This document shows positions 9,279 to 56,645 of a stretch of DNA of 64,000 nt, piece after piece. Below the pieces are notes generated by a model. That model ran no database searches, was not told where the DNA came from, and worked only from the letters and a program-made list of their open reading frames with translations. Within the stretch, counting starts at the first letter, position 1. Every line of letters begins with the position of its first letter. Both the position numbers and the translations under genes were made by a program. This DNA comes from Spirochaetota bacterium (lineage in GTDB: Bacteria > Spirochaetota > Spirochaetia > Treponematales > UBA12059): the NCBI GenBank assembly GCA_003247225.1, contig QKAK01000057.1, positions 4,774 through 68,773 of the forward strand. Reading direction: 5' to 3'.

Positions 9279-12773
<3,495 letters not shown>

Positions 12774-20056: not shown

Positions 20057-20085
20057 TTTACACTACTATTCGCTTAGGATACGAT
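20057..20085 (+). promoter_or_regulatory. Candidate promoter of the ugp-like operon, bracketed by a 9-bp inverted repeat
   Basis: TTTACA (20057-20062), 17-nt spacer, TACGAT (20080-20085). GAAACGGAT (20049-20057) and ATCCGTTTC (20084-20092) are perfect inverted repeats spanning both hexamers. Confidence 0.35.
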
Positions 20086-20125
20086 CCGTTTCCCGGGTCG
20101 ATCATTCGATGCAATGGAGGCATAC

Positions 20126-21433: not shown

Positions 21434-21447
21434 TTCGCTTCCGTAAC

Positions 21448-21472
21448 GAGGGGCGGCCGACGGCCGCCCCTC
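21448..21472 (+). other. Intercistronic GC stem-loop after the binding-protein gene
   Basis: GAGGGGCGGCCG-A-CGGCCGCCCCTC palindrome with no T tract. This matches the mRNA-stabilising hairpins often found after ABC binding-protein genes. Confidence 0.5.
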
Positions 21473-21494
21473 GACCCTTACCTCAGGATACTCC

Positions 21495-22385: not shown

Positions 22386-22395
22386 GGAGCGATCG

Positions 22396-23241: not shown

Positions 23242-23348
23242 GCCACATTAGGGGCGGTTCATTGACAGGGGGCTCCCGGCCGTCCTAAGCTACCGACGAT
23301 ACGCGACCCTCTGGCCGCTAAAATAATTCAATATCGAGGAGTAGGGAC

Positions 23349-38742: not shown

Positions 38743-39654
38743 ATGGGCGACGATAGGCGGGACAAGTCGGGGACCGAGTCGATCGGGATGCTGTTCGGCG
38801 TGGGCGCGTACGGCCTCTGGGGCCTGTTCCCGCTGTACTGGAAGCGGCTGTCGTCGGTGCCGTCGCTGCAGATCCTGATGCATCGGATAGCCTGGGCCTT
38901 CGCGCTGACCTTCGCGCTGGCCCTGCTGCTCGGCAAGCGGCGGCTGATCGCGGAGCTGCTGCGCGACCGCAGGCGACTCGGCGCGACGATAGCGGCCGGC
39001 TTCCTCGTCAGCCTCAACTGGGGCATCTACATCTGGGCGGTCAACGCCGGGCATATCGTCGAGACCAGCATAGGGTACTTCCTGAACCCGCTCGTCTCGG
39101 TCGCCCTCGGCTCGCTCGTGCTCAAGGAGAGGATAGACCGCGGCATCAAGGCTGCCTGCGCGATCGCGGCGGTCGGGATAGCGGTGCTCACGGTATCGTA
39201 CGGCAAGCTGCCCTGGATAGCGCTGTCGCTCGCGGCCACCTTCTCGCTCTACGGCCTCATAAAGAAGCTGACTAACCTCGACGGGCTGACCGGCCTGGCG
39301 ATGGAGACCGCCCCGGTCATGCCGCTCGCGATCGGGTACCTGGTATTCGAGGAGCTGGCGGGGCGCGGGGCCTTCGGGCGGGCAGGGGGCGTCGAGACGG
39401 CCATGCTGGTGCTGGCCGGGGCGGTGACCGCCCTGCCGCTGTTCTTCTTCGCCGAGGGGGTAAAGCGGGTGCCGCTGTCGAGGATGGGCTTCCTGCAGTA
39501 CATCTCGCCGACGCTCCAGCTGGCGCTCGGGCTGTTCGTGTTCGGGGAGACGCTTACGGCGCCGAAGGCGGCCGCCTTCGCGTTCATCGTGGCGGCCCTG
39601 GTCGTGTTCGCGGCGACGAGGCCGAGGCGCGCCCGCGACGGCGGGGCCGACTAG
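38743..39654 (+). CDS. rarD: EamA/RarD-family (DMT superfamily) transporter
   Basis: GMLFGVGAYGLWGLFPLYWKRL...HRIAWAF is the RarD signature; ~10 TM segments. Confidence 0.8.
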   Translation: MGDDRRDKSGTESIGMLFGVGAYGLWGLFPLYWKRLSSVPSLQILMHRIAWAFALTFALALLLGKRRLIAELLRDRRRLGATIAAGFLVSLNWGIYIWAVNAGHIVETSIGYFLNPLVSVALGSLVLKERIDRGIKAACAIAAVGIAVLTVSYGKLPWIALSLAATFSLYGLIKKLTNLDGLTGLAMETAPVMPLAIGYLVFEELAGRGAFGRAGGVETAMLVLAGAVTALPLFFFAEGVKRVPLSRMGFLQYISPTLQLALGLFVFGETLTAPKAAAFAFIVAALVVFAATRPRRARDGGAD

Positions 39655-39667
39655 GCGCGCGTCGGGA

Positions 39668-40456
39668 TCACATCGAGGCCAGCTCCTCGTCGCGCCTGTC
39701 GGTGACGAACATGTGGCCCGGCGCGTGGGTCACCACGCGCTCAAGGCCGGCGTTCATGATCGCGGCCTGGGAGGTCACGCCGCAGGCCCAGAATACCGGC
39801 ACCTCGCCGGGCCTGATATCCACGGCGTCGCCGAAGTCGGGCGAGGCTATATCGCGTATCCCGAGCGCCGCCGGGTCCCCGGCGTGCACCGGCGCGCCGT
39901 GCACCTCCGGGAAGCGCCCCGTGACCTCGTAGGCCTCGGCTACCATAGCCTCGGGCATCGGCCTCATGCTGACGACCAGCTCCCCGGAGAAGGGGCCGGC
40001 TACGGCGCAGGGCCGGTCCGTACGGTACATCGGCACGTTCCGGCCCTGCTCGAGGTGGCGTACCGGCAGTCCGGCCGCGGCGAGGGCGCCCTCGAAGGTG
40101 AAGCTGCAGCCTATCAGGAACGATACGTAGTCGTCGTCCCAGCTACCGAGCAGGTCCGCCGGCTCGGCGACGAGGCGGCCGCGCTCGTAGACCCTGTAGC
40201 GCGGGATATCGGTACGCACGTCGGAATCGGCGGCTACGCGCGCGGCGGCCGTGGACCCGGCCTCGCAGACGTCGAGCACGGGGCAGGCCTTGCGGTTCCG
40301 CTGGCAGAACAACAGGAAGTCGAAGGCGTAGCGCGAAGGCAGCGCTACGAAATTAGCCTGGGCGTAGCCCGGGGCCAGGCTGGCCGTCGGGCCCGTCCAG
40401 GCGCCGGAGCGTACCGCCAGTCGCGCCGACCTACCGTCCAAGAGCCTCGTATCCAT
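39668..40456 (-). CDS. YcsI/DUF1445 (UPF0317) putative hydro-lyase, D-glutamate-cyclase-like
   Basis: Internal start [18 protein letters not shown] (GGAGG upstream) of ORF 39668..40921. Motifs [38 protein letters not shown] and VFWACGVT match my memory of the family. Homologue of B. subtilis ycsI, which sits in the pxp/kip operon. Confidence 0.7.
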
Positions 40457-40479
40457 GATCGACCTCCATCTATCCGATT

Positions 40480-42285
40480 CTAGCGCGGCTCGACTTCGAC
40501 GTCGAAGCGCTCGCCGCCGACCGTCACCACGAAGCGGCGGACGACCGGCGCCGGCTGGCCGCGGATAAGCGCGGCCTCGAGCTCGCGTTCGCGCTCGAGC
40601 AGAGCGGCACCGGCCTCGGCGGCCGAGGCTATCTCGAAGCGTACGACGCCGCCCGGCGGCACCTGGGCCAGTACGCCCAGGTCCGCGCCGATCACGCTCG
40701 CTAGCCTCGGGTAGCCGCCGCAGGTCTGCCGGTCGGCCATCATCACGATCGGCATGCCGCTCGGCGGCGCCTGCACCGTACCGAAGTTGACTGCCGACGA
40801 GAGCATCTCGCGGGCGCCCCATCCGGCCATCGGCAGCGGGTCGCGGCCCTCGAGCCGGTAGCCCATGCGGTCCGAGTCGGCCGATACGCGGTACTCGCGC
40901 GACGCGAAGGCTTCGAGGCATCCGGGCCCGAGGGCGTCGGCCTCGGGCCCGGGGACGACGCGGACGCGCGCGGTCTCGCCGGCCGCGTAGAGCGGGACGC
41001 CGGGCGTCCGGGCTCGGACCGGCTCTCGATCCCGGTCGCCGGGGCCGAGGTTCGCGCCCGGCCGGCCGATAGGCAACCGGTCGCCGGCCTCGAGACGGCG
41101 GCCCGATACCCCGCCTAGGCGCGCGCGCGCGTAGGTGGAACGGGAGCCAAGGGCCGGTTCGACCGCGAAGCCGCCGGCGACGGCGACGTAGGAACGGGCT
41201 CCGCGCCCGACGGGCGGCATCTCGAGCACCGAGCCGCGCCTGGCGCGTACGCGCGCGTACATCGGAACGGGCTCTCCGTCGAGCGTCATAGGCGTCGGCG
41301 CGCCCGCCACGGCGAACTCTGCGTCGGACAGGAACTCGAGCGTCGGCCCTATCAGCGTCGTCTCGAGGCAGGCGGCCGACGGGGCGTTGCCGACGAGCCG
41401 GTTGGCGAGGCGGGCCGATAGTCGGTCCATGGCGCCGGAGACGGGGACGCCGTATTTCTGGTAGCCGCGGCGCCCGAGGTCCTGTATCGTCGTAGAAAGG
41501 CCGGGCTTGACGACTCGTATGGCCGCGGACTCCGGGCCGGACGGGGAATCGCAGGGATCTTCGCGCTCATCGGCGATGCCGCCCGGTTCGCGGCTCATCG
41601 ACTCGAACTCGTCATGGCCGATCGGATAGAAGCGCACCAAGTCGCCCGGACGCAGGACGGCCGGCGGCTCCTTTCGCGGGTCGAAGAGCCGCATGGGGGT
41701 GCGGCCTATCAGCTTCCAGCCGCCCGGGCTGTCGAAGGGGTATACGCCGGTCTGGCGGCCGGCTATCCCGACCGAGCCCGCGGGTATCCTGGGGCGGGGC
41801 GTCTTGAGCCGCCCCGAGGCGATGCGCTCGTCGACGCCGCCGAGGTACGGGAAGCCCGGCGCGAAGCCGAGCATGTATACCGGATAGTCCCTGCCACGGT
41901 GGACGGCCGCGACCTCGTCGGCCGACAGCCCCGCTTCAGCGGCTATCGACTCCAGGTCCGGCCCGGCGTCGCCGCCGTAGGCCACGGGCACGCGTACGAC
42001 CCTCCGCGCCTCGCCGCCCGGGACCGAAGGCCGCGCCGAGCGGACGAAGGCCTCGACCTTCGCGTGCGTCGTCAGGAGCGGATCGAAGTCTACCAGCACC
42101 GACGAATAGGCCGGGGACGCCTCGATGATCCCCTCGCCGGCCGGCCCGGCGGCTTTGGCCGCCTCTACGGCGTCCGCGAGCGAGCGCGCCCGCCCGTTCA
42201 GCTCCTCGGATAGCTCGTCCCCGAGCCGGACGAGCAGCGCGTCGTCGCCGAGCGGGACGCAGTCGAAGCGGCCCTGGCTAGCCAT
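40480..42285 (-). CDS. pxpBC: 5-oxoprolinase subunits PxpB-PxpC fused (KipI-KipA / allophanate hydrolase subunit 1+2 domains)
   Basis: The N-terminal ~230 aa are KipI/PxpB-like ([12 protein letters not shown]..., [10 protein letters not shown]). A linker follows, then a KipA/PxpC-like part ([32 protein letters not shown]...). Confidence 0.8.
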
Positions 42286-43048
42286 CGGCGCGGGAAAGGG
42301 GCCGTATATCGACGCCGGCCTCGCGGAGGGCCTTCGACAGCGCGGCCGCCAGCTCGAGCGCTCCGTCGCCGTCGCCGTGGAGGCAGATCGTATCGGGGCG
42401 CAGCTCCACGCGTTCGCCGCCGATAGCGGTCACGGATCCGTCGCTCACCATGCGGACGGCCCTGGCGGCGCAGGCGGCGGGATCGTCGATGACGGCGCCT
42501 GGCTGGCTGCGGGGGACGAGGGAACCGTCCGCGCGATAGGCGCGGTCCGCGAAGGCCTCGCCGGCGCAGCGGAGTCCTGCGGCGTTCCCGGCCTTGACGA
42601 GCTCCGATCCGTAGAGGCCGACGAGGACCAGCGACGGGTCGTAGGCGGCTACCGCCTCGGCTATGGCCACCGCGAGGTCGGTCCGCCTCGCCGCCATGTT
42701 GTAGAGCGCGCCGTGCGGCTTAACGTGCGTCAGCGCGACGCCGCGGGCAGCGGCGAACGCGCCGAGCGCGCCGACCTGGTAGAGCACCATCGCGCGCACC
42801 TCGTCGGCGCTCGCCGCCAGCTCCCGCCTACCGAAGCCGGCGAGGTCGGGGAAGCCCGGGTGGGCGCCGACCGAGACGCCGGCCGCCGCGGCCAGGGCGA
42901 CCGTGCGCTCCATGACCGACGGATCGCCGGCGTGGAAGCCGCACGCCACGTTGGCCGAGGTGACGTAGCGCAGCACGCCCTCGTCGTCCCCTATGGAATA
43001 GGCTCCGAAGCCCTCTCCCATGTCGCAATTCAGATCGACGCTAATCAT
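42278..43048 (-). CDS. pxpA: 5-oxoprolinase subunit PxpA (LamB/YcsF family)
   Basis: MISVDLNCDMGEGFGAYSIGDDEGVLRYVTSANVACGFHAGDPSVM is canonical LamB/YcsF. Confidence 0.9.
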   Translation of the reverse strand: MISVDLNCDMGEGFGAYSIGDDEGVLRYVTSANVACGFHAGDPSVMERTVALAAAAGVSVGAHPGFPDLAGFGRRELAASADEVRAMVLYQVGALGAFAAARGVALTHVKPHGALYNMAARRTDLAVAIAEAVAAYDPSLVLVGLYGSELVKAGNAAGLRCAGEAFADRAYRADGSLVPRSQPGAVIDDPAACAARAVRMVSDGSVTAIGGERVELRPDTICLHGDGDGALELAAALSKALREAGVDIRPLSRADG

Positions 43049-43973
43049 CGGGATTCCCCTCGCCTTCGATGGAGGTAGCGGCGCGTATGGCCTCGAGGGC
43101 GGCCAGGTCGGCCTCGGGGCTGACGCCGTCGACGGTAGGTTCGCGTCGGCCGGAGCAGCCGTCGACGCCGCCGGCCGCCGCGACGGCCTCGAGCATGGCC
43201 GTCTCGTCGCCCGGTCCGTGGAGGAGCCGGACGGTCCGGCCTTGGTCGCGCAGCAGCAGCTCGATCGCCCTGACGAGGGCGTACGCTCCCCAGTTGGACA
43301 CGCCGGCCACGATCAGCTCGTCGGCGCGCGTGACGGCCTTTATAGTAGGGCCGAGCGGCACCCGCTCGTCTATGATGGCGCCGATGGAGCCCATGCCCAG
43401 CTCGTTGCCTCCGTCGCCGACCGCCACGGAGACGGCGCCGTGGTCGGCGGCCCTGGCGACGAGCGCGTCGGCGTCCGGCACGAGCGCGCGCATGTCGGAG
43501 CCGCGCATCGAGTAGAAGCCGCCGTCGGCCGCCTTGCCCGGCCGCTCGACGGCCACGACGACGTCCGGCCGGAAATCCGACAGGATGGAGACGCAGGAGG
43601 CTTCCCCGTCGGCGGGAGATAGCGCTTGGACGCGCGGACGCTCCCCGAGCGCGGCCGCGGCCGCCTCGACCAACGCGGCCGAGTAGCCGTCGGTGACGAT
43701 GCGGACGTCCTTGCCGAGGCGGGCCAGGGCCCTCGCCAGTACGGCGGCGCCCGGCGGGCCGTCGCTCTCGCCGACCCCGGCCCGCTCTATCAGGAAGCCG
43801 GTAACGATCAGGACCCTGTCGGCCCTTGCGAGCCCGGACGCTGCCCGCCGGATAGCGCCCCGTAGCGCGGCGCGTAGCCGCGGGTCCCCGCATAGCCCTC
43901 GGCCGCCCGGATCGTCGGCGAGCGCGGCCTCGATCGACGTCGGGCCGGTCGCCGCTTTCTGTGAAACGCTCAT
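43041..43973 (-). CDS. DUF4392 (glutamate-cyclase-domain) protein
   Basis: Motifs ESDGPPGA, VERPGKAADG, GDGGNELGMG and VSNWGAYAL match my recollection of DUF4392. 8-nt overlap with pxpA. Confidence 0.6.
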   Translation of the reverse strand: MSVSQKAATGPTSIEAALADDPGGRGLCGDPRLRAALRGAIRRAASGLARADRVLIVTGFLIERAGVGESDGPPGAAVLARALARLGKDVRIVTDGYSAALVEAAAAALGERPRVQALSPADGEASCVSILSDFRPDVVVAVERPGKAADGGFYSMRGSDMRALVPDADALVARAADHGAVSVAVGDGGNELGMGSIGAIIDERVPLGPTIKAVTRADELIVAGVSNWGAYALVRAIELLLRDQGRTVRLLHGPGDETAMLEAVAAAGGVDGCSGRREPTVDGVSPEADLAALEAIRAATSIEGEGNPDD

Positions 43974-44001
43974 GATGCTCCTCGAGGCCCGTTCCGACCG
44001 G

Positions 44002-45252
44002 CTAGGCCCTTACGCCGACGATCTTGCCGCGCTTGACGACGGCGCCGACGAGGTTCATGCCCACGTGGTACGCCAGGTGGCGGTACGACGGGGCGTCCAG
44101 CACGAGCAGGTCGGCCAGCTTGCCCGCCTCTATAGAGCCGCGGTCGCCGGCGAGGCCGAGCGCGGCGGCCGCGTTCAGGGTCAGCGCGGTCAGCGTCTCC
44201 TCGATCGTCATGCCCATGTACAGCACGGCGAGGGCCGCGGCCAGGGGGATGGACTGGCTGTAGCACGAGCCGGGGTTGAGGTCGGACGCTACGGCGACCG
44301 CCAGACCGCGGTCTACCATCGCCCTGGCGGGCGCGTACGGCTCGCGCAGGCTGAACGCGGTCAGCGGCAGGCAGGTCGCGACGACGCCGGCCTCCGCCAT
44401 CGCCCCGAGATCGTCGTCGGACGCCTTGAGCAGGTGGTCGGCGCTGACCGCGCCTACGGCCGCGGCCAGGCCGGCGCCGCCTAGCCGGACGATCTCGTCG
44501 GCGTGCAGCTTGACGCCGAAGCCCATCGACCTGGCCGCCTCGAGGAAGCGCCTCGAGTCGTCGAGCTCGAAGACCCCGCGCTCGCAGAAGACGTCGCAGA
44601 AACGCGCCAGGCCGCCTTCCTTGACCCGCGGCAGCACCTCGCGTATCGCGAAGTCGATGTATCCCGACGGGTTTCCCTTGTATTCGACGGGGATGGAATG
44701 CGGGCCCATATAGGTCGATACGATATCGACCGGCTGCCTCGCATCGAGCAGCCGCATGACCTCGAGCTGGCGGAGCTCGGTCTCCAGGTCGAGGCCGTAG
44801 CCCGACTTGCCCTCGACGGTGGTGACGCCGAGCCCGAGCATCCGCTCGAGCCGGGCGGCGGCGCTCGCCTCGAGCTCCTCGGCCGAGGCGTTCCGCGTGT
44901 CGCGCACCGTGTTGGCTATGCCGCCCCCGCGGGCGTGGATCTCCATATACGGCAGGCCCTCGGCCCGCCAGAAGAACTCGTCGTCTCGGTAGCCGCCGAA
45001 CACGAAATGGGTGTGCGAGTCGACGAAGCCCGGTACGACGGCGCCTCCGCGCGCGTCGACGCGCTCTGGCGGCGGCCCGTCGAGCCTCGGCAGCTCGGAG
45101 GCAGGGCCGGCCCAGGCTATCGTCTCCACGTCGACGGCGACGGCGGCGTCGCGGACGATCCGCAACTCTCGCATGCGAGCGCCGGCGCGAGCCGACGAGC
45201 CGACGGGCGTCGCCAGCTCGCCGATGTTCTCGATCAGCAGCGTCGCCCTCAT
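44002..45252 (-). CDS. hutI: Imidazolonepropionase
   Basis: 416 aa amidohydrolase; motifs PGFVDSHTHFVFGG, KLHADE, VSADHL and ASDLNPGS. Confidence 0.9.
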   Translation of the reverse strand: MRATLLIENIGELATPVGSSARAGARMRELRIVRDAAVAVDVETIAWAGPASELPRLDGPPPERVDARGGAVVPGFVDSHTHFVFGGYRDDEFFWRAEGLPYMEIHARGGGIANTVRDTRNASAEELEASAAARLERMLGLGVTTVEGKSGYGLDLETELRQLEVMRLLDARQPVDIVSTYMGPHSIPVEYKGNPSGYIDFAIREVLPRVKEGGLARFCDVFCERGVFELDDSRRFLEAARSMGFGVKLHADEIVRLGGAGLAAAVGAVSADHLLKASDDDLGAMAEAGVVATCLPLTAFSLREPYAPARAMVDRGLAVAVASDLNPGSCYSQSIPLAAALAVLYMGMTIEETLTALTLNAAAALGLAGDRGSIEAGKLADLLVLDAPSYRHLAYHVGMNLVGAVVKRGKIVGVRA

Positions 45253-48200
45253 CGCCCGCCCGCCTCGCGGCCGCGGTACAGCGGGTCGACGCCTATCGTA
45301 CCGACGAGCGAAGCGGCGTATCCCGGCCGCGACGCCCGCTCGAGGCTCTCCCGGACGGTCGCGAGCTCGCGGCGGGCCTTCGCGAGGTCTCGCTCGTCGC
45401 GGCCGCGCGGTGAGCCGAGGAATTCCTCGAGGTAGGCGACGCCCTCGCGGAGCCTCGCGCGCTCGGCCTCGGCGTAGGCTTCGAGGCGCGCGGCGTACCA
45501 GTCCGAGGACAGCACGTAGTCGCGGTCGAACAGGCGCCGCAGCTCGGGGTCGCCCAGGCCCTTGCCGTTCCAGGAGCCCTCGGCCATCACGCGCAGGATG
45601 GCCTGGAGCGGCGGGATGGCCGCCTCGATCGAGCCGTCCTGGACGTAGTCGCGCGCGACGCGCTCCTGGGCCTCGGCGATGTTGAGGACGCCGTCGGCGA
45701 AGTACTCGAGGCTCTGCAGCTCGGGCCGGAGCACCTCCTCGGGGAACACCGACGACGGGGCGTCGAAGATGCGGCCGAGGAAGTGCGACGCGAACAGCGG
45801 CGTGATGCGCCAGCCGAGCCGGCCCGCCGGTATGGTCCGGCCGCCGAGCTCGAAGTCCTCGACGCGCTCGAGGTAGCCGTGCTCGATCAAGAAGGCCGGG
45901 TCACGCTCCTCGGGCGTCAGCCTGGCCCACAGCTCGGGCACTAGCAGCGATATATCGTGGTCTATCCTGTACTTGTGGCCGATGTAGCCGGCGGCCGTGG
46001 AGAAACCGTCGTATCCCCCGAGTATGAAGCCGAGCAGGGCGTTGTTCAGGTCCGAGGTCGGCGTCAGCGAGTTGAACGGGCCCTTGGTCAGCGCTCCCTC
46101 GGATCCGGCGCCGGTCGTCGACGGGCTCTTCCCGGTCAGCGAGCAGATGAAGTCCATGAACAGCTCTGGCAGCTCCTGGTAATGGACCGGCCCGTAGACG
46201 GCCAGCGGCCTGATGCCGGCCTCCGGCTCTGGCGGGTTGTTGCGCCTGCCCGGCAGCACGGCGCCGACCGGGTAGTAGACCGGCGCGTCGGCCCTGACCA
46301 TGCGGAACAGCCTGGCCCCGACGTCGGCCAGGTAGCGATCGAGCGGCGCGGCGTAGTTGCGGTCCAGCTGCAGGTAGCGCGGGTTCTTGGACGGCTTGCC
46401 GTCGACGATACGGGGCTTCGACGAGACGACGAACCAGCGGAACCCGTCGTCGCCCTCGGCGCCGACTATCATCTCGCGCATCGGCTCGGTGTACTCGGAC
46501 AGCTCCACGGTGCGCTCGACCATCTCGTTGGCGTTGGCGCGCGACAGCGGCTCGAAGTTCGAGATGAAGTTGTCGGGCCGCGCCATGTCGGCCTCGGCCT
46601 GCTTGTCGTAGCCGCGATGGATCGCGTCGTCGGGGCGCTGGAAGAACCTGGCCTCGCAGTTCTTGACGAACTTGACCGATTCGCCCCGTACGTCGTCGGG
46701 CAGGCCCGACAGGGCCGGCGTCGGCGCTATGACCGACGCGGTGATGTCGTCCTCCCACTGGATCTTCGCCGCGGGCATGTAGTCCTGCCTGAGCTTGTGG
46801 ATGGACCTGGCGCCTTCGGGGGTGAAGCCGACGCGAAGGTACGAGCCCTGGACGGGGCGGCCGTCGTACTTGACCACGTTGCCGGCGGCGCCGTTGACGA
46901 CGTCGGTGGTGAAATGGGACGCCCAGTCGTCGCCCCACTCCGGGCGGTAGAAGCGCTTGACCAGGAAGACGAGCGCCTTGACGCGATCCGGTATGGCGGC
47001 CAGCCACTCGTTGTACACGTCGGTGTACAGCTCCGAGGGTGAAAGCAGCTTGATGACGCTGCCGAGGGAGCGCTTGTCCGACAGGATCGAGCGGCTGGCG
47101 GAGCCGTGGTTCTCCGCGGGGTCCTTGAAGCGGGTGCCGTACGGATACTCGATGACGGCCTTGACCATCGCCATGTCGGCGGCGAAGTCGCCGGTGACGA
47201 TCGGGCCGTCGCTCATCGCGTCGGTGATCTGCTTGGATATCTCGGACTTGCCGCCGCCGGAGACCGTGCACGGCTTATGGCACAGGAGGCCGTCGGCCTG
47301 CGTGCCGATGAGGCGCCACGAACCGGTCTTGGGGTGCTGCTGCATCTCGATCCTGTAGCCGGTCGGATGCACGTAGGTCTCGCCGGGGAGTATCCGCAGG
47401 CTCTGCTCGACGCCGTCCCTGCGCCAGACGGCCTTCTGCGTGTCGATGGACAGCACGGCGTCCTCCGGCAGGTAGATCACGCTCGGGAAGACGGCGTCGA
47501 TGGCGTAGCCCTCCGGCCGCAGCTCGATGCGGTCGCCGAGCAGGCGCACCACGTCGTCGAAGCGCTGGCCCTTCGAGCGCAGGTTGGTATCCGGCACGAA
47601 GCGGTTCCCGAGGTTGAAGCTGGGCAGCACGAGCGCGCCGCCGGCGTGCTCCTCCTCGGTCAGGCCGAGCAGGTTCGACGAGTAGGAGATCTGCGTCTTG
47701 ATCTCCTTCTTGGAGTACCCGAAGTAGTTGTCCGCGATGATGGTGACGATGACGCCGCGCTCGTCGCGGGCGCAGAGCTTGAACGGCTGGCCGCCGTTGT
47801 ACGGTTCGGACGGATCCTTCCAGGCCATGCCGTCGCGCCTCTGGCGCTCGGTGGCCTCGTCCCAGGACGGCAGGCCGAGCGCCTTCTTCGGCGTCCCGAC
47901 GAGGTGGGTGGCCAGGATGATGCAGCCCGTGTGGCCCGACCAGTGGAGCGGGTCGAGCGCGGCGTCGTTGGCCGAGACGTAGGGGTCTCCGGAGTTCCCG
48001 AAGATGCTCTCGACGAAGTCGAGGTTGGCGGCGAGCGAGGCCGGCGCGAAGAAGCGGGTCTCCATCGAGCGCTCCTCGTAGAGCCCGGGCACCTCCGGCC
48101 GCACCGTCGGCCTCATCAGCAGGGACAGGAAGCAGCGGGCGGGCTCCGGCTCCTGGGCCGTGAACGGCAGTACCAGGAGATCGTCCGGCGGGTTCAGCGC

Positions 48201-48722
48201 CGCGGCGAGCATCCTGGCGAACGCTATCTTCGGCACGGCCAGCTTGTCGAGCGGGATCGGCAGGCCCCCCTCGGCTATATGGAAGACGCCCTTCGTGGTG
48301 CGCCGGTCGTTCTTGGGGTTATGGAGGATGCCGTTGCGCACCCGGTACGAGGCCAGGGTCGGCGATCGGTACTCGTGGGCGTCAGGCGGCAGCGACAGCT
48401 CCCTGGCCATGCCGTATCGGTCGAGCGTCAGCGTGTTCGAGGGCAGTCGGGGCGCCTCGCCGTCGGGCAGGTCGGCTAGGTACGAGTCGAGGAACGCCTG
48501 GATGCGGGCGTCGGCCGGGGGGAGGTAGTCGGCGAGCAGCCGCGCCTTCTCCCGGTAGTTGAGCAGCATGTCGTTGGCGAGCTCGAGGAACGCGGTGCCT
48601 TCCTTGCCGTAGACCGGCAGGCCGAGGGCCGATAGCTTCAGGTTGATGTATGCGATGAGCCTTCCCCGTTCAGACGGCGAGCGTCGATCCAGGGTGACTC
48701 CGAAGTCGCGTTTTGCCGGCAT
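45249..48722 (-). CDS. Large (1157 aa) conserved protein with PEPCK-like kinase motifs; candidate PPi-type phosphoenolpyruvate carboxykinase
   Basis: The size matches the ~1150-aa PPi-PEPCK class. TVSGGGKSEISK resembles the PEPCK kinase-1a P-loop (GLSGTGKTT in ATP-PEPCK). NYFGYSKKEIK resembles the PEPCK-specific YGGxxKK motif. Its stop overlaps the hutI ATG (ATGA). Confidence 0.4.
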   Translation of the reverse strand: MPAKRDFGVTLDRRSPSERGRLIAYINLKLSALGLPVYGKEGTAFLELANDMLLNYREKARLLADYLPPADARIQAFLDSYLADLPDGEAPRLPSNTLTLDRYGMARELSLPPDAHEYRSPTLASYRVRNGILHNPKNDRRTTKGVFHIAEGGLPIPLDKLAVPKIAFARMLAAALNPPDDLLVLPFTAQEPEPARCFLSLLMRPTVRPEVPGLYEERSMETRFFAPASLAANLDFVESIFGNSGDPYVSANDAALDPLHWSGHTGCIILATHLVGTPKKALGLPSWDEATERQRRDGMAWKDPSEPYNGGQPFKLCARDERGVIVTIIADNYFGYSKKEIKTQISYSSNLLGLTEEEHAGGALVLPSFNLGNRFVPDTNLRSKGQRFDDVVRLLGDRIELRPEGYAIDAVFPSVIYLPEDAVLSIDTQKAVWRRDGVEQSLRILPGETYVHPTGYRIEMQQHPKTGSWRLIGTQADGLLCHKPCTVSGGGKSEISKQITDAMSDGPIVTGDFAADMAMVKAVIEYPYGTRFKDPAENHGSASRSILSDKRSLGSVIKLLSPSELYTDVYNEWLAAIPDRVKALVFLVKRFYRPEWGDDWASHFTTDVVNGAAGNVVKYDGRPVQGSYLRVGFTPEGARSIHKLRQDYMPAAKIQWEDDITASVIAPTPALSGLPDDVRGESVKFVKNCEARFFQRPDDAIHRGYDKQAEADMARPDNFISNFEPLSRANANEMVERTVELSEYTEPMREMIVGAEGDDGFRWFVVSSKPRIVDGKPSKNPRYLQLDRNYAAPLDRYLADVGARLFRMVRADAPVYYPVGAVLPGRRNNPPEPEAGIRPLAVYGPVHYQELPELFMDFICSLTGKSPSTTGAGSEGALTKGPFNSLTPTSDLNNALLGFILGGYDGFSTAAGYIGHKYRIDHDISLLVPELWARLTPEERDPAFLIEHGYLERVEDFELGGRTIPAGRLGWRITPLFASHFLGRIFDAPSSVFPEEVLRPELQSLEYFADGVLNIAEAQERVARDYVQDGSIEAAIPPLQAILRVMAEGSWNGKGLGDPELRRLFDRDYVLSSDWYAARLEAYAEAERARLREGVAYLEEFLGSPRGRDERDLAKARRELATVRESLERASRPGYAASLVGTIGVDPLYRGREAGGR

Positions 48723-48851: not shown

Positions 48852-49436
48852 ATGTCAAGGAAAGAATTGGAAGCGGCGCTCGACTTCATCCTCAACCGGG
48901 CGGACCCGTCCGAGTTCGAGGTCGTCGCGAAGGCCTGCGAGCGCAGGCGGCGCGATATGGGCAAGTACGCCGGGCTCGGCGGGCTCAATCCGGGGGCGTT
49001 GGCGGAGAAGATGGCCGCCTCGGTCCAGGAGGGCGTCGGGCGCAGCCTGGACGGGCTGCGCGATACCGTACGCGACTACGTGGCCCGCCTCGTCCGCCAG
49101 AAGGAGCCCGGCGCGACCGACGAGCAGATCGAGGCGCTGCTCGACGAATGCCTGCCCGACAGGTCCGACCCCTCGTCGGGGGCTCGGGCCGGCTCGGCCG
49201 CCGACGACCTGCCGCCCGAGGCCGTCGCGATGATGGTCAGGGACTTCGTCGACTATTCGCTCGGCCTGATGCCGCCCTCGCGGCAGCAGGAGCTATGGGA
49301 GGGCATCGACGCCTGGCAGGACAAGTACTGGCAGGCCTTCTCCCCGGAGCTGCGGGCCTTCGTCAAGGCCAGGCTCGAGGAACGGCTCGGCGAGGACGAA
49401 TTCTGGTCGGCCGTGTTCAGCCTGCTCGGGCTCTGA
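48852..49436 (+). CDS. Hypothetical protein (194 aa), no family recognised
   Basis: Complete ORF with coding-like composition and no SD. TATAGT ends 6 nt before the ATG, so the mRNA may be leaderless. Confidence 0.5.
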   Translation: MSRKELEAALDFILNRADPSEFEVVAKACERRRRDMGKYAGLGGLNPGALAEKMAASVQEGVGRSLDGLRDTVRDYVARLVRQKEPGATDEQIEALLDECLPDRSDPSSGARAGSAADDLPPEAVAMMVRDFVDYSLGLMPPSRQQELWEGIDAWQDKYWQAFSPELRAFVKARLEERLGEDEFWSAVFSLLGL

Positions 49437-49556
49437 GCGCCGCGCTCGATAGAATCGCCCGGACGCCTCGCCCCGCCGCGGGCCCCGTGGTATACTGCGG
49501 CCCGATCCAGCTTGAGGCGCGGTCCCGCCGGCGGCGGGGCCCGGAAGAGGTTCCCG

Positions 49557-51098
49557 ATGAAGACTATAGTGCTAGACGGACGAGGGCTCCGCATAGGCGA
49601 CGTGGCGCTGGCGGCCCGCTTCGGGGCGAAGGCGGAACTGTCGAAGGACGCGATCCCGAGGATGAACGCCTCCAGGGCCGTCGTCGAGCGATGCGTCGAC
49701 GAGTCGCTGATCCGCTACGGCATAACGACCGGCTTCGGGAAATTCTGCGACGTCGTCATCAGCCGGGAGAGCAACGCGACGCTGCAGCGCAACCTGATCA
49801 TGAGCCACGCCGTGGGCGTCGGCGACCCGCTCCCCGACGAGGTGGTGCGAGCGATGATGCTGCTGCGCGTCAACGCCCTCGCCGTCGGCAACTCCGGGGC
49901 CAGGCTGTCCACGGCCCAGGCCCTGCTCGATATGCTGAACGCCGGCGTGACGCCGGTGGTGCCCGAGAAGGGCTCCCTCGGGGCGTCGGGCGACCTCGCC
50001 CCTCTGTCCCACGTCGCCATAGCGCTCTGCGGCATGGGCGAGTGCTTCTATAAGGGCAGGCGGATGCCGTCCGCCGAGGCGCTCGCCGCCGCGGGGCTTA
50101 CGCCGGTCGAGCTTGCCGCCAAGGAGGGCCTCGCGCTCATCAACGGCACCCAGTGCATGACCGCGGTCGCCGCGCTCGCCGCGTACGACGCCGAGCGGCT
50201 GGCGCGGACCGCCGACGTCGCGGCCGCGCTGACCTCGCAGGCGCTGCGCGGCATCGTCGACGCCTACGACCCGCGCGTGCACGAGGTCCGCGGGCAGCCG
50301 GGGCAGGTAGAGTGCGCGGCCCGGCTCCGCGCCCTGCTCGACGGCTCCTCGTATACGACCAGGCAGGGCCAGGAGCGCGTCCAGGACGCCTACGCCCTGC
50401 GCTGCGTGCCGCAGGTCCACGGCGCCTCTCGCGACGCCATAGGCTACGTCGTCGGCGCGGTGTCGCGCGAGCTGAACGCCGCCACCGATAACCCGCTCAT
50501 ATTCGCCAACCCGGACGACCCGTCCGGCGGCGACATCATCTCCGGCGGCAACTTCCACGGCCAGCCGATCGCGCTCGCGATGGACTTCCTGGGCATAGCG
50601 CTCGCGGAGCTGGCCAACGTGTCGGAGCGCCGCCTCGAGCGCCTCGTCAACCCGGCCCTGTCGAACGGCCTGCCCGCCTTCCTCGTCAAGGACGGCGGCC
50701 TGAACTCCGGCTTCATGATCGTGCAGTACAGCGCCGCGTCGCTCGTCTCCGAGAACAAGGTCCTGGCCCATCCCGCCAGCGTCGACTCGATCCCGTCGAG
50801 CGCCAACCAGGAAGACCACGTATCGATGGGTACTATCGCGGCCAGGAAGGCGCGCGAGATACTCGGCAACGCGCGGACCGTGCTGGCCCTCGAGCTGCTG
50901 GCCGCGTGCCAGGCAGTCGACCTGCGAGGGGGCCCGGACGGCCTGTCGCCGGCGACGAGGGCCGCGTACCGCGCGCTGCGCTCGGTCGCGCCGATGGTCG
51001 AGCGGGACCGCGTGATGCAGGACGACATCAAGGCCGCCGAGGCTCTCGTGTCCGACGGTACCGCGCTCGAGGCCGTCGAGGAGGCGTTGGGCGCGTAG
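49557..51098 (+). CDS. hutH: Histidine ammonia-lyase
   Basis: Internal start MKTIVLDGRGL... of ORF 49512..51098. Motifs YGITTGFG and the GSLGASGDLAPLSH MIO-forming ASG motif. Confidence 0.93.
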   Translation: MKTIVLDGRGLRIGDVALAARFGAKAELSKDAIPRMNASRAVVERCVDESLIRYGITTGFGKFCDVVISRESNATLQRNLIMSHAVGVGDPLPDEVVRAMMLLRVNALAVGNSGARLSTAQALLDMLNAGVTPVVPEKGSLGASGDLAPLSHVAIALCGMGECFYKGRRMPSAEALAAAGLTPVELAAKEGLALINGTQCMTAVAALAAYDAERLARTADVAAALTSQALRGIVDAYDPRVHEVRGQPGQVECAARLRALLDGSSYTTRQGQERVQDAYALRCVPQVHGASRDAIGYVVGAVSRELNAATDNPLIFANPDDPSGGDIISGGNFHGQPIALAMDFLGIALAELANVSERRLERLVNPALSNGLPAFLVKDGGLNSGFMIVQYSAASLVSENKVLAHPASVDSIPSSANQEDHVSMGTIAARKAREILGNARTVLALELLAACQAVDLRGGPDGLSPATRAAYRALRSVAPMVERDRVMQDDIKAAEALVSDGTALEAVEEALGA

Positions 51099-51209
51099 TC
51101 GGTCCGGCCCTATCGTCCTTTATTTAGCGGATTTTTAATCGCGCGCTTGACTTCCCCGGACGGAACCCTAGACTTCTATACAAGGTATAGAAGATTAGGA
51201 GTATCCGGC

Positions 51210-52070: not shown

Positions 52071-53516
52071 ATGGCCGCGAGGAGCGCCCGGCCCGTTCGG
52101 CGGATGGCCTTCACCGTTATACTCGTCTCGGGCCTGACGACCCTCGCGCTGACGCTCTCGGCGAGCGCGTACCTGTTCCTCGACGACGCGACGCATACGC
52201 TCCGCGCCTACGCGGATTATATGGCCGAGTCGCTGGCCTACTCGTCGATCGATCCGCTCCTTACCGAGGCCTACGTCTCGCTCGAGGGGGTCGTCGAGAC
52301 GTTCCGGGGCCGGCGGGACATAGCGGAGGCCTATGTCGTCAACGGGGACGGGCGGGTGGTCGCGTCGCTCGACCGGGGCGACCTCGGGACGCTCCGGCCC
52401 TCGATAGGCGCCGGCGCCCCCGACGACGGACCGTTCGGCTGGGGGACGCTCCGCGCCGATTCGTTCACCGTCTCGCGATCCGTCCTGTACCTCGGGACGC
52501 GGCTCGGCGAGGCCGTCGTCGGCTTGTCGCTCGACGGCGTCCGGCGGCGCGTCGCCGTCATCCTCGCGCGCGGCGTGGCGGTGGGCGCCTGCGCCTTGTC
52601 GGCGGCCCTGCTAGTCGGCCTCGGGCTATCGAGGCGGGTCTCGGGGCCGCTGGAGGCGCTAGCCTCGCGCGCGGCCGGGATAGCGCGCGGCGAGCCGCCC
52701 GGCGACGCGCCGGCGTCCGCCATACGCGAGATCGCGATCCTCGGCGAGACCGTGATAGGCATGGCGAGGAAGCTCGACGCCGGGAGGCGGTCCGCCGAGT
52801 CCGCGCTGGCCCTGGCCGCCGCCGCGCGCGACGAGTCGTCGGCATCCGCCGCGCGCCTGTCCGACGCGCTCGAGGAGAAGACCGTCCTCCTCCGCGAGAT
52901 ACACCATAGGGTCAAGAACAACCTCCAAGTGATCATCAGTCTCCTGCACCTGGAGCAGGAGGAGATGAGCGTCCCGACGGACGCCCAGGTCCTCGAGCAG
53001 GCCGAGGCTAGGATACGCTCGATGGCGATCGTGCACGAGATGCTGTACCGCTCCGACGACCTCTCCGACATCGACATGCGGGAGTACTTCGACGCCCTCT
53101 GCGCCGACATCGGGCGCTCGGCGTCGAGGGGCGACGGCGTCAGGCTGGTCCTCGACGTCGACGCCGTCACCCTCAGCATAGAGGACGCCATACCGCTGGG
53201 GCTCATCGCCAACGAACTGATCTCGAACGCGCTCAAGCACGGCCTCGGCGACCGCGATTCCGGTACGATACGCCTGTCCCTCGGGCGCAGCGGCGGCTGC
53301 TACCGTTTCAGCGTGTCGGACGACGGGGGCGGTACGCCGTCGGGGCGGCCGCCCGAGCCGTCGCTCGGCCTGACGCTCATAGGCGCGCTGGCGGACCAGC
53401 TCGGCGCCAGCGTCGAGTGGCGGTGGGACGGCATGGCCTCGGCACGGATCTGCTTCGCCGGGCATGGCTCCTGTTCAGCCCGCGCCGGGGGTGCTATTAT
53501 GGGGGGACCGCAATAA
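52071..53516 (+). CDS. Membrane sensor histidine kinase, HAMP + HisKA_2 + HATPase
   Basis: N-terminal TM segment, second TM/HAMP segment, phospho-acceptor box LLREIHHRVKNNLQVIISLL (HisKA_2/HWE type) and an ATPase region LIANELISNALKHG. No response regulator in the window. Confidence 0.8.
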   Translation: MAARSARPVRRMAFTVILVSGLTTLALTLSASAYLFLDDATHTLRAYADYMAESLAYSSIDPLLTEAYVSLEGVVETFRGRRDIAEAYVVNGDGRVVASLDRGDLGTLRPSIGAGAPDDGPFGWGTLRADSFTVSRSVLYLGTRLGEAVVGLSLDGVRRRVAVILARGVAVGACALSAALLVGLGLSRRVSGPLEALASRAAGIARGEPPGDAPASAIREIAILGETVIGMARKLDAGRRSAESALALAAAARDESSASAARLSDALEEKTVLLREIHHRVKNNLQVIISLLHLEQEEMSVPTDAQVLEQAEARIRSMAIVHEMLYRSDDLSDIDMREYFDALCADIGRSASRGDGVRLVLDVDAVTLSIEDAIPLGLIANELISNALKHGLGDRDSGTIRLSLGRSGGCYRFSVSDDGGGTPSGRPPEPSLGLTLIGALADQLGASVEWRWDGMASARICFAGHGSCSARAGGAIMGGPQ

Positions 53517-53526
53517 AGGAGATACC

Positions 53527-55545
53527 ATGGTCACGAACGACATAGCCGGAGGCCTCCGGTTGGATTTCGACGAGCTACCGCCCGATCCCGTCTTCGAGGA
53601 GGGTATCCGCCGAGCGCCGAGGCGCGAGGCGCGCCTGACGCGAGCCCAGGAGGCGCTCGCCGTCAAGAACGCCCTCCGCTACGTGCCGGAACGTTGGCAC
53701 GCGCGCCTGGCGCCCGAGTTCGCAGACGAGCTCAGGGAGCGCGGCCGTATCTACGGCTATCGCTTCAGGCCGGAAGGCAAGCTGTACGGCAAGCCGATAG
53801 ACTCCTACGCCGGCGCCTGCGTCGAGGGGCGGGCCTTCCAGGTGATGATCGACAACAACCTCGACTTCGACGTGGCGCTGTACCCGTACGAGCTCGTCAC
53901 CTACGGCGAGACCGGCCAGGTCTGCCAGAACTGGATGCAGTACCGGCTGATAAAGAAGTACCTGGAGCGGCTCGACCATACGACGACCCTCGTCGTGGAG
54001 TCCGGCCACCCGCTCGGCCTGTTCAAGAGCCACGAGCTCGCGCCGCGCGTCGTGATCACGAACGGCCTGATGATAGGCATGTTCGACAACCAGAAGGACT
54101 TCAACCACGCGGCCGCCCTCGGCGTGGCCAACTACGGACAGATGACCGCCGGCGGCTGGATGTACATCGGACCCCAGGGCATCGTCCACGGCACCTTCAA
54201 CACGCTGCTCAACGCCGGCCGCCTCAAGCTCGGCGTCTCGCGCGACGGCGACCTCGGCGGCAAGCTGTTCGTCTCGTCGGGCCTGGGCGGCATGTCCGGC
54301 GCCCAGGGCAAGGCCGCCGTGATAGCCGGGGCCAGCTCCATCATCGCCGAGGTCGACGAGAGCCGGGTCGCCACGCGGCATTCCCAGGGCTGGGTCGACC
54401 GCGTCGAGAAGACGGTGGCCGGCGCCTTCGCCCGGGCGGAGGACGCCCGCTCGAAGGGCGAGGCGATCGCCGTCGCCTACCTGGGCAATATCGTCGACCT
54501 GCTCGAGTACGCAGACTCCCACGGCGTGCGGATAGACCTCCTGTCCGACCAGACGAGCTGCCACGCCGCGTACGAGGGCGGTTACTGCCCCGTCGGCCTG
54601 TCGTTCGAGGAGCGTACCCGCCTGCTCGCCGACGATCCCGCGCGGTTCCGCTCCTTGGTCGACGCGAGCCTCCGCCGTCATTTCGACGTGATCGGGCGCC
54701 TGACCGCCAAGGGCACCTACTTCTTCGACTACGGCAACTCGTTCCTCAAGGCGGTCTACGACGCCGGCGTGCGCGAGGTCTCGAAGAACGGCGTCGACGA
54801 GAAGGACGGCTTCGTCTTCCCGAGCTACGTCGAGGACATACTCGGCCCGGAGCTGTTCGACTACGGCTACGGCCCGTTCCGCTGGGTCTGCCTGTCCGGC
54901 AAGGACGAGGACCTGCGCAAGACCGACGCCGCCGCGATGGCCTGCATCGACCCGAACCGCCGGGGCCAGGACCGGGACAACTGGGCCTGGATACGGGACG
55001 CCGAGAAGAACCGGCTCGTCGTCGGCACGAAGGCGCGCATCCTGTACCAGGACGCGATCGGCCGCACCAAGATAGCCCTCGAGTTCAACCACATGGTCCG
55101 CAAGGGCGAGATAGGGCCGGTCATGCTCGGCCGCGACCACCACGACTGCGGCGGCACCGACAGCCCGTTCCGCGAGACGAGCAACGTCAAGGACGGCTCG
55201 AACGTGATGGCCGACATGGCGGTGCAGAACTTCGCCGGCGACGCGGCCCGCGGCATGAGCCTCATCGCGCTGCATAACGGCGGAGGCGTCGGCATCGGCA
55301 AGAGCGTCAACGGCGGCTTCGGCCTCGTGCTCGACGGCTCCGAGCGCGTCGACGCGATCATATCGATGGCCATGCCCTGGGACGTGATGGGCGGCGTCGC
55401 GCGCCGGTCCTGGGCGAGGAACGAGCACGCGGTGGCGACCTGCGCCGAGTACAACGAGGTCTACTCGGGCTCCGGCTCCATAACGCTGCCGTACATAGCC
55501 GACGACCGCATCGTCGAATCCGCCCTCGGAGGCTCCGGGAAATGA
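53527..55545 (+). CDS. hutU: Urocanate hydratase (long, ~670-aa form)
   Basis: Internal start MVTNDIAGG... (GGAGA upstream) of ORF 53464..55545. Motifs YGQMTAGGWMYIGPQGIVHGT, GLGGMSGAQ and LGRDHHDCGGTDSPFRETSN. Confidence 0.92.
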   Translation: MVTNDIAGGLRLDFDELPPDPVFEEGIRRAPRREARLTRAQEALAVKNALRYVPERWHARLAPEFADELRERGRIYGYRFRPEGKLYGKPIDSYAGACVEGRAFQVMIDNNLDFDVALYPYELVTYGETGQVCQNWMQYRLIKKYLERLDHTTTLVVESGHPLGLFKSHELAPRVVITNGLMIGMFDNQKDFNHAAALGVANYGQMTAGGWMYIGPQGIVHGTFNTLLNAGRLKLGVSRDGDLGGKLFVSSGLGGMSGAQGKAAVIAGASSIIAEVDESRVATRHSQGWVDRVEKTVAGAFARAEDARSKGEAIAVAYLGNIVDLLEYADSHGVRIDLLSDQTSCHAAYEGGYCPVGLSFEERTRLLADDPARFRSLVDASLRRHFDVIGRLTAKGTYFFDYGNSFLKAVYDAGVREVSKNGVDEKDGFVFPSYVEDILGPELFDYGYGPFRWVCLSGKDEDLRKTDAAAMACIDPNRRGQDRDNWAWIRDAEKNRLVVGTKARILYQDAIGRTKIALEFNHMVRKGEIGPVMLGRDHHDCGGTDSPFRETSNVKDGSNVMADMAVQNFAGDAARGMSLIALHNGGGVGIGKSVNGGFGLVLDGSERVDAIISMAMPWDVMGGVARRSWARNEHAVATCAEYNEVYSGSGSITLPYIADDRIVESALGGSGK

Positions 55546-56645
55546 ACCCGGCCGCCGGCCCGACCGACTCGATCGTCGACGTGCCAGGCGTCTCGGTCGG
55601 GCACGCGACCATCGCCGACGGCGACCTGCAGACCGGGGTGACCGCGGTGCTGCCCCACGCGGGCAACCTCTTCCGCGATAAGGTCCCGGCCGCCTGCCGC
55701 GTCTTCAACGGCTTCGGCAAGTCGGTCGGGCTCCTGCAGGTCGAGGAGCTCGGCGTCGTCGAGTCGCCCATACTGCTTTCGAACACCTTCGCGATGCCGG
55801 CCTGCGTCGACGGCGCCCTCGACCTGCTGCTGGCGGAGAACCCCGACATCGCCCGCGGGACCGGCAGCGCCAACGTCGTCGCGCTCGAGTGCAACGACGG
55901 CTACCTGTCCGACATGCGCAGGCGCGCCGTCTCGCGGGAGCACGTCGCCGAGGCGCTGCGGTCGGCCCGGGAGGCGGCGCGGCGGATAGAGGCCGGCGGC
56001 CCGCCCGCCGGCGCGTTCGACCGCGGCTCGGTCGGGGCCGGTCGCGGCATGAGCTGCTACGGGCTCAAGGGCGGCATAGGCACGGCCAGCCGCGTCGCGG
56101 ACTGCGGCGGCCGCCGTTACGTCGTAGGCGCCCTTCTGCTCACCAACTTCGGCCGCCTATCGGACCTCGCGCCGCGCGGTAGGCCGCTCGGGAAGGAAAT
56201 CGAGGAGCTCGGCGGCCCCGCGGCCGCGCGCGTACGCGCGGCCGCTTCCGACGGCTCCGGCGTCGGGAGGCCCGGCGACGGCTCGGTCATCGTCATACTC
56301 GCGACCGACGCCCCCGCCGACTCGCGCCAGCTCCGCAGGCTGTGCATGCGCGCGGCCTCCGGCCTGGCGCGCACCGGCGCCGTGATAAGCGGCGGCTCCG
56401 GGGAGATAGCGCTCGCGTTCTCCACCGCGTACACCCTGCCGCACGATCCTCCTGCGGCCGTCGCCGGCGCCCCGCCGCCGGCTATCATGCTGCCGGCGAT
56501 CCACGAGGACCTGCTCGATCCGCTGTTCAGGGCCGCCACCGAGTGCGTCGAGGCGGCCGCGCTCGACTCGCTGTACAGCGCGGAGACGGTCGTCGGACGG
56601 GACGGCCACGTCCGCGTCGCGTTGTCCGAGCTAGCGCTGGGCTAG
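55542..56645 (+). CDS. P1-family (DmpA/S58-like) Ntn-hydrolase/aminopeptidase
   Basis: DVPGVSVGHATIADGDLQTGVTAVLP N-terminus and a GSVGAGRG block typical of DmpA-like proteins. ATGA overlap with the hutU stop. Confidence 0.65.
   Translation: MNPAAGPTDSIVDVPGVSVGHATIADGDLQTGVTAVLPHAGNLFRDKVPAACRVFNGFGKSVGLLQVEELGVVESPILLSNTFAMPACVDGALDLLLAENPDIARGTGSANVVALECNDGYLSDMRRRAVSREHVAEALRSAREAARRIEAGGPPAGAFDRGSVGAGRGMSCYGLKGGIGTASRVADCGGRRYVVGALLLTNFGRLSDLAPRGRPLGKEIEELGGPAAARVRAAASDGSGVGRPGDGSVIVILATDAPADSRQLRRLCMRAASGLARTGAVISGGSGEIALAFSTAYTLPHDPPAAVAGAPPPAIMLPAIHEDLLDPLFRAATECVEAAALDSLYSAETVVGRDGHVRVALSELALG

Follow-up and report, generated by a model that had tools for sequence, protein, structure and literature searches.

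A probable insertion of a glutamate/5-oxoproline gene cassette behind hutI in a spirochaete, and a Peptidase S58 gene at the position of hutG

A 64-kb stretch of the Spirochaetota bacterium contig QKAK01000057.1 (hereafter the window, to which coordinates refer), which comes from a high-GC member of Spirochaetia, carries the histidine utilization (Hut) genes hutH, hutU and hutI, and immediately behind hutI four genes related to the metabolism of 5-oxoproline. The question raised by this locus is whether these four genes take part in the degradation of histidine. An earlier note had proposed that they do, with a split cyclase (DUF4392 plus DUF1445) turning N-formimino- or N-formyl-glutamate into 5-oxoproline and PxpABC reopening it to glutamate, in place of the known enzymes HutG, HutF or FtcD. 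Comparison with related loci and with DUF4392 loci of other species leads us to a different answer. The four genes form a cassette that is missing from sister lineages, and they probably constitute an autonomous glutamate/5-oxoproline unit that is co-transcribed with hutI here and does not act on Hut intermediates. The cassette recurs elsewhere with two unrelated types of 5-oxoprolinase and with glutamate-type transporter genes, which argues that it has a job of its own.

The cassette and its setting behind hutI

The minus-strand genes of the locus and the gene that converges on them are:

45249..48722, minus strand: pyrophosphate (PPi)-dependent phosphoenolpyruvate carboxykinase (PEPCK), 1157 aa (phmmer against the PDB)
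44002..45252, minus strand: hutI, imidazolonepropionase, 416 aa (TIGR01224; also Amidohydro_1 and Amidohydro_3)
43041..43973, minus strand: DUF4392 / GLUCM-like_C protein, 310 aa (PF14336; PDB 4dwz)
42278..43048, minus strand: pxpA, 5-oxoprolinase subunit A, 256 aa (PF03746, NF003814)
40480..42285, minus strand: pxpB-pxpC fusion, 601 aa (CT_C_D and CT_A_B domains)
39668..40456, minus strand: DUF1445 / YcsI-type "putative hydro-lyase", 262 aa (PF07286, NF003969, PDB 2pif)
39628..43998: 4.37-kb cassette (indel) with DUF4392, pxpA, pxpBC and DUF1445, between the hutI stop and the 3' end of the EamA gene
38743..39654, plus strand: EamA-family transporter gene, convergent (PF00892)

Six minus-strand genes follow one another head to tail in the order PEPCK, hutI, DUF4392, pxpA, pxpBC, DUF1445. 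The first two share a 4-nt ATGA overlap, 28 nt separate hutI from DUF4392, the DUF4392/pxpA and pxpA/pxpBC pairs overlap by 8 nt each, and 23 nt lie between pxpBC and DUF1445, whose ATG at 40456 is preceded by GGAGG. No terminator-like site was found on the minus strand from 48722 to 39668. The earlier note had described five tightly packed genes (gaps of at most 28 nt or 8-nt overlaps), had read hutI and the four genes downstream as one string, and had reported a 1157-aa gene coupled to hutI by ATGA; the coordinates and the lack of a minus-strand terminator agree with all of this. The product of the 1157-aa gene can now be named as the PPi-dependent PEPCK, as it gives full-length matches to the enzymes of Actinomyces israelii (6k31_A, 1184 bits) and Propionibacterium freudenreichii (8e1u_A, 1166 bits; E=0 for both in phmmer), and PF26300 (PEPCK_PPi_lobe_2) is recorded on its orthologues. 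The DUF1445 gene had been assigned to the correct family (PF07286, NF003969), but the mechanically called open reading frame (ORF) of 417 aa overlaps pxpBC, and the actual gene encodes 262 aa. The stops of the DUF1445 and EamA genes, which converge, are 13 nt apart (39654-39668), with a terminator-like structure on neither strand.

The cassette enzymes look intact, judging by scores above curated cut-offs and by the retained metal ligands. DUF4392 matches PF14336 with E 1.7e-76 and PDB 4dwz with E 3e-35, and keeps all six metal ligands of TON_0340 as E69, D71, E143, D187, E191 and D282; their counterparts in TON_0340 (E59, D61, E115, D157, E161, D246) are invariant in our DUF4392 alignment (A1). 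All three 5-oxoprolinase components, PxpA (LamB/YcsF), PxpB (CT_C_D) and PxpC (CT_A_B), are present and adjacent: PxpA matches PF03746 with E 3.4e-103 and NF003814 with 370 bits (cut-off 226), the PxpB part scores 196 bits against TIGR00370 (cut-off 146), and the PxpC domain 302 bits against TIGR00724 (cut-off 230), though 245 bits against the PxpC equivalog NF045499 are below its cut-off of 500. DUF1445 matches PF07286 (E 3.3e-67), NF003969 (400 bits, cut-off 324) and PDB 2pif (E 5e-94).

Related loci suggest that this cassette is a late addition to the hut region. In blastn comparisons two sister loci, L084 and L169 (L numbers designate the loci compared), match the window up to position 43999 and resume at 39627, so that a segment of 4.37 kb is missing and hutI lies only ~160 nt from EamA. 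A metagenome scan with HutI returned 80 loci. Among the loci compared, the cassette was found only in the window, in L083 (99% identity) and in L082 and L163-165 (HutI 92%, DUF4392 82-83%), all of which share the gene order PEPCK-hutI-cassette. It is absent from L084 and L169-171 (HutI 80%), L088 (70%), L172 (72%) and L086 (65%). PEPCK directly precedes hutI in L084, L169-171 and L172, while in L086 a TetR gene intervenes and the L088 locus is too short to show PEPCK. On the other side, EamA is the next gene after hutI in L084, L088 and L169-171; L086 has two SPFH/Band-7 genes between hutI and EamA, and in L172 hutI is followed by a ribosomal-protein cluster, with no EamA gene. In a collection of 5.8 billion proteins the identities of the DUF4392 homologues drop from 83% to 48%, with none in between. 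The same collection contains the S58 proteins (see below) of NCBI metagenome-assembled genomes (MAGs) of the sister lineages, so the sisters appear to be without an orthologous copy in the sampled data.

Parsimony favours a gain of the cassette in the crown lineage. Its genes have a GC content at third codon positions (GC3) of 0.88-0.89, lower than the 0.92-0.94 of the genes on either side. No k-mer of at least 9 nt is common to the two cassette borders, there is no tRNA gene nearby, and none of the four genes is a mobility gene. A mobile element or genomic island was considered and rejected, given the lack of flanking repeats, of an integrase or transposase and of a tRNA target.

DUF4392 in other species and the function of the cassette

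We scanned for DUF4392 by alignment, with one genome per species (the best hit was 47% identical to the window protein), and counted neighbours by tblastn (within 10 kb for hut genes); this recount was used since greedy ORF calling missed genes in high-GC loci. The 80 loci obtained span Clostridia, Spirochaetes, Planctomycetes, Rokubacteria, Proteobacteria, Synergistetes and archaea, and not one of the 80 has HutI, HutH or HutU within 10 kb. The neighbours that do occur, with the OPLAH-type, TAXI-TRAP and MurD-like assignments backed by Pfam, are:

DUF1445 near DUF4392: 22/80 loci
PxpA, PxpB or PxpC near DUF4392: 14/80 loci
MurD-like domains, fused to DUF4392 or nearby: 13/80 loci
OPLAH-type 5-oxoprolinase (fused Hydantoinase_A/B = HyuA/HyuB, ~1300 aa) near DUF4392: 9/80 loci
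TAXI-TRAP binding protein near DUF4392: 7/80 loci

DUF4392 and DUF1445 are mostly adjacent yet separate genes in other bacteria. Their pairing with two non-homologous 5-oxoprolinases argues for a functional link to 5-oxoproline itself, and the remaining neighbours are all glutamate- or gamma-glutamyl-themed, as in the case of a gamma-glutamyltranspeptidase directly upstream of DUF4392 with a class-III aminotransferase on its other side (Rokubacteria, Acidobacteria). The MurD-like fusions hint at D-glutamate chemistry. In the Phycisphaerae (L061, L064, L065 at 9983-11758, L067, L071, L072, L079, L081) DUF4392 forms a single protein with MurD-like N-terminal and middle domains, the ~1300-aa OPLAH-type 5-oxoprolinase precedes it, and DUF1445 follows the fusion where the contig is long enough (L061, L064, L065, L079). 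In several loci of Rokubacteria, Acidobacteria and Deferrimicrobia (L025, L029, L030, L049, L054, L066, also L062) DUF4392 stands in a row with an AIR-synthase-like protein, the gamma-glutamyltranspeptidase and the class-III aminotransferase.

With respect to known systems, the cassette is a variant of the pxp operons. It shares PxpA, PxpB and PxpC homologues with pxpA(ycsF)-ycsG-ycsI(pxpI)-pxpB(kipI)-pxpC(kipA) of B. subtilis and with kipOTIA of C. difficile, and it shares with the former a DUF1445/YcsI gene within the operon (pxpI is listed in the kip region by the preprint 10.1101/2024.05.01.592088). It differs from both in that PxpB and PxpC are fused, DUF4392 is added, and there is no dedicated transporter or regulator, but presumably read-through from PEPCK-hutI. 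The statement in the earlier note that mammalian D-glutamate cyclase is a fusion of both DUFs proved accurate: mouse DGLUCY (C14orf159 / 9030617O03Rik) consists of DUF1445 and DUF4392 and converts D-glutamate to 5-oxo-D-proline (PMC5339696). DUF1445 of the window is the homologue of its N-terminal half and DUF4392 of its C-terminal half, whereas in the window each has a gene of its own, and pxpA and pxpBC occupy the 2.6 kb that separate the two. In the searchable literature we found no assayed bacterial homologue of DGLUCY. A further described relative, TON_0340 of Thermococcus onnurineus (4dwz, 5gl2-4), is homologous to DUF4392, has the six acidic metal ligands in common with it, and was reported to act as a Mn-dependent phosphatase toward artificial substrates (PMC5132392).

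We propose the following scenario. The ancestral state of the clade would be a PPi-PEPCK->hutI pair facing a divergent p194->hutH->hutU->S58 operon, and in the immediate ancestors of this organism the four-gene cassette would have entered the space that separates the hutI stop from the convergent EamA gene. The cassette has neither a terminator nor a convincing promoter to itself, so transcription probably reaches it from the PEPCK/hutI promoter, and it would then be expressed alongside a second glutamate-yielding pathway in the window lineage. By family membership, PxpA and PxpBC are predicted to open the lactam of 5-oxoproline to L-glutamate at the expense of ATP, and the most likely role of DUF1445 and DUF4392 is to form or convert this lactam or a phosphorylated intermediate, e.g. 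in the conversion of D-glutamate to 5-oxo-D-proline. More speculatively, the DUF4392/DUF1445/5-oxoprolinase cassette, which occurs with oxoprolinases of two unrelated types and with fusions to MurD-like domains, could be an ATP-driven route for the salvage of D-glutamate to L-glutamate via 5-oxoproline. The formiminoglutamate (FIGLU) step would be left to the S58 protein at the hutG position, or to an FtcD or HutG gene outside the window, and not to the cassette.

The cyclase branch of histidine catabolism put forward in the earlier note would, if true, be a fourth, ATP-consuming ending of a textbook pathway. It could draw on the position of hutI immediately upstream (28-nt gap, no terminator), on a 64-kb window that is without a known FIGLU enzyme, on the lack of an L103-type hutG orthologue among the best homologues from the NCBI MAGs of the lineage, and on the formiminotransferase-like gene near DUF4392 in 5/80 loci. 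The comparative evidence nevertheless makes it very improbable. The cassette is an indel: sister lineages with the same hut locus have neither the cassette nor a neighbouring FIGLU enzyme. Hut genes accompany DUF4392 at 0/80 loci, its partners include two unrelated 5-oxoprolinases, and the hutG slot is already held by S58. In addition, ATP would be spent on a step that elsewhere is a plain hydrolysis, in an organism that uses PPi-PEPCK. We know of no cyclase that acts on an N-substituted glutamate. The lack of a FIGLU enzyme near hutI is itself weak evidence, as described below.

The earlier note also offered a more conservative reading, part of which fits the evidence, namely that the cassette turns 5-oxoproline into glutamate and is expressed together with a pathway that yields glutamate. 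The strong form of this reading has the cassette selected at the hutI site to clear 5-oxoproline arising from the flood of Hut-derived glutamate, so that the link to hutI is functional. This we regard as unlikely, even though read-through from the hutI operon would suit it, as would the retention of the cassette in two lineages whose proteins have diverged by 8-17% and the detoxification of 5-oxoproline and nutrient use attributed to PxpABC-type enzymes (bioRxiv 10.1101/2024.05.01.592088; PMC13274462). The 0/80 count speaks against it as well, as does its counterpart on the hut side, where pxp and DUF4392 genes are missing from all those of the 80 metagenome hutI loci that do not belong to the window lineage. 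Sister lineages do without the cassette at the hutI site, and the need for a cyclase-like pair is left unexplained.

Several points weigh against the autonomous glutamate/5-oxoproline unit that we prefer. Both the co-transcription and every enzyme activity are inferred. In 5/80 loci (L025, L029, L054, L062, L066) the other strand carries a formiminotransferase-like gene 3-9 kb from DUF4392, and a loose link of DUF4392 to formimino-glutamate metabolism is conceivable. The sisters might hold a distant DUF4392 cassette (at most 48% identity) elsewhere in the genome. Selection for co-expression may be why the insertion, which is in frame with the hut operon, persists in two lineages. Finally, a true genome-wide absence of FtcD, HutG and HutF, which is possible, would leave room for the cyclase branch. 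In the literature we found no published link of DUF4392, DUF1445 or pxp to hut genes. Taken by itself, the occurrence of split D-glutamate-cyclase homologues with two unrelated families of ATP-dependent 5-oxoprolinases in many phyla ties DUF4392 and DUF1445 to 5-oxoproline chemistry.

The hutG position and the fate of formiminoglutamate

The genes of the divergent plus-strand operon are, in order:

48852..49436, plus strand: p194, conserved 194-aa protein, first gene of the divergent hutH operon
49512..51098, plus strand: hutH, histidine ammonia-lyase (TIGR01225)
51147-52067, plus strand: PhnD-like binding protein (Pfam)
52071-53516, plus strand: HisKA_2 histidine kinase (Pfam)
53464..55545, plus strand: hutU, urocanate hydratase, long form (TIGR01228 and three urocanase Pfam domains)
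55542..56645, plus strand: Peptidase_S58, DmpA/BapA-type N-terminal nucleophile (Ntn) hydrolase, 367 aa (PF03576)

HutH (681 bits with TIGR01225, cut-off 539), HutU (427 bits with TIGR01228, cut-off 375) and HutI (453.6 bits with the TIGR01224 equivalog, cut-off 298) are equivalog-level members of the Hut pathway, and hutH and hutU do lie 4-10 kb away, as had been noted. The earlier note overlooked the Peptidase_S58 gene (55542-56645), whose first 4 nt overlap the hutU stop. The canonical endings of the pathway are HutG (arginase family), HutF plus N-formylglutamate amidohydrolase (FGase), and FtcD formiminotransferase plus cyclodeaminase; relative to this scheme the first three enzymes are the same here, and the position of hutG is taken by S58. 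None of these endings was detected in the window, in agreement with the earlier note: the 31 window ORFs (all those outside the ribosomal-protein/RNA-polymerase block) gave no Pfam match to the Arginase, FGase or FTCD families and none to an amidohydrolase besides HutI, and tblastn searches of all 64 kb, in which a HutG-like protein, FtcD formiminotransferase and cyclodeaminase from related loci served as queries, returned nothing at E<=1e-3.

The S58 protein has both the fold and the self-cleavage nucleophile site of its family. It matches PF03576 with E 3.9e-105 (352 bits) and PDB 2drh with E 3.5e-83, and also aligns with 3n2w and 1b65. Its Gly-Ser nucleophile motif GDGSVIVILATDAP is aligned to that of BapA, with GDG/SVIVILATDAP of the window protein corresponding to GKG/SIIMIIATDAP of 2drh and KN/SLLIVIATDAP of BapA (slash at the self-processing site; for the Gly-Ser cleavage of DmpA-type enzymes see PMC9570944). 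The protein has no NCBIfam match, TIGR01227 included, and no match to an arginase-fold Pfam family. It resembles DmpA and BapA in family and in the self-processing motif, and differs from them in its fixed place in a hut operon.

This place is conserved. The hutU->S58 order with the 4-nt overlap recurs in six lineages, i.e. the window, L163 (S58 83% identical), L166 (68%), L169, L175 and L176 (64%), and in L172 (S58 56%) p191->S58 stands beside PEPCK-hutI in a 17-kb locus that does not contain hutH and hutU. In the outgroups an arginase-family gene takes this position, with the same 4-nt overlap of the hutU stop (hutU->hutG):

L103:10041-11084: hutG-like gene
L177:10001-11092: hutG-like gene
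L178:10001-11056: hutG-like gene

TIGR01227 is the best model for the L103 protein (181 bits, below the cut-off of 229), and homologues of the outgroup hutG-slot protein are annotated as formimidoylglutamase. The pattern is as expected for an in-situ non-orthologous displacement of HutG, and may reflect one. We tentatively suggest that S58 is a new formiminoglutamate (or N-formylglutamate) hydrolase, non-homologous to HutG, which displaced HutG in a spirochaete clade; it is in any case a testable candidate for a non-orthologous formiminoglutamate enzyme. No published link of S58 to hut genes was found in the literature.

Alternatively, the genome carries a canonical FtcD, HutG or HutF at another site, neither the cassette nor S58 has to do with FIGLU, and S58 is a peptidase of the beta-alanyl-dipeptidase/carnosinase type that feeds histidine into the pathway. 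We give this combination somewhat less than an even chance. Unlinked genes are common: FtcD or HutG adjoins hutI in only 21/46 hutI loci of other lineages (at least 6 kb long), and with 25/46 ordinary loci lacking such a neighbour, its absence near hutI is weak evidence. DmpA/BapA relatives are described as cleaving beta-alanyl peptides including carnosine (PMC9570944 and its reference 30), and a 53%-identical S58 homologue (L174) is found in a cell-wall peptide context. Against a canonical enzyme, the 18 clade loci besides L103 contain neither FtcD nor HutG. Nor would a histidine-supplying peptidase be expected beside PEPCK-hutI in L172, a locus without hutH and hutU, or exactly in the hutG slot with its start overlapping the hutU stop. 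A search with the L103 HutG-like protein returned no orthologue from the NCBI MAGs of the lineage among the best homologues; its matches at >=54% identity all come from other sources, except for one Acidobacteriota MAG, which is suggestive only.

PEPCK, p194 and insertions in the hut operon

The PEPCK->hutI pairing is also present in L084, L103, L163, L169 and L172, and extends, often with a stop/start overlap, to at least six related spirochaete lineages. The enzyme differs from 6k31 and 8e1u in being translationally coupled to hutI across this clade. No description of the pairing was found in the literature, and it stands as a conserved oddity of the clade.

The p194 protein is conserved in L084, L163, L166, L169 and L172, and its family comprises ~223 representatives in a library clustered at 50% identity. 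It is all-helical and always encoded by the first gene of the hutH(-hutU)-S58 operon, adjoining S58 in L172. Pfam, NCBIfam and the PDB gave no match, including a profile search of the PDB, and a single-sequence AlphaFold model was unusable (predicted local distance difference test, pLDDT, 48). The idea that p194 is a hidden cyclodeaminase was rejected, as hhalign of a five-member alignment against ten FTCD_C proteins gave a probability of 0.6%.

The segment 51096..53470 (plus strand) between hutH and hutU, with the PhnD-like protein and the HisKA_2 kinase, is absent from L083 (flanks 97-98% identical) and from L163, in which hutH and hutU are ~40-80 nt apart. On this sequence comparison a sensor pair has been inserted into the hut operon at the level of the strain. 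In L166:4807-7556 the hutH-hutU spacer holds cysK/cysE-like genes and IS66 fragments. The alignment of HutU with TIGR01228 begins at residue 124, and relatives (661-675 aa) share its N-terminal extension of ~100 aa; the annotated hutU start overlaps the kinase gene, and the true start is probably slightly later. In L175:3204-5238 hutU is apparently split in two ORFs, which may reflect a frameshift or a pseudogene.

Further away in the window, at 20078-24356 (plus strand), a sugar-type ABC transporter (binding protein and two permeases) and an SH3-domain protein are encoded between tuf and rpsJ in the ribosomal-protein region, in a segment whose GC content of 0.59-0.60 is below that of its surroundings.

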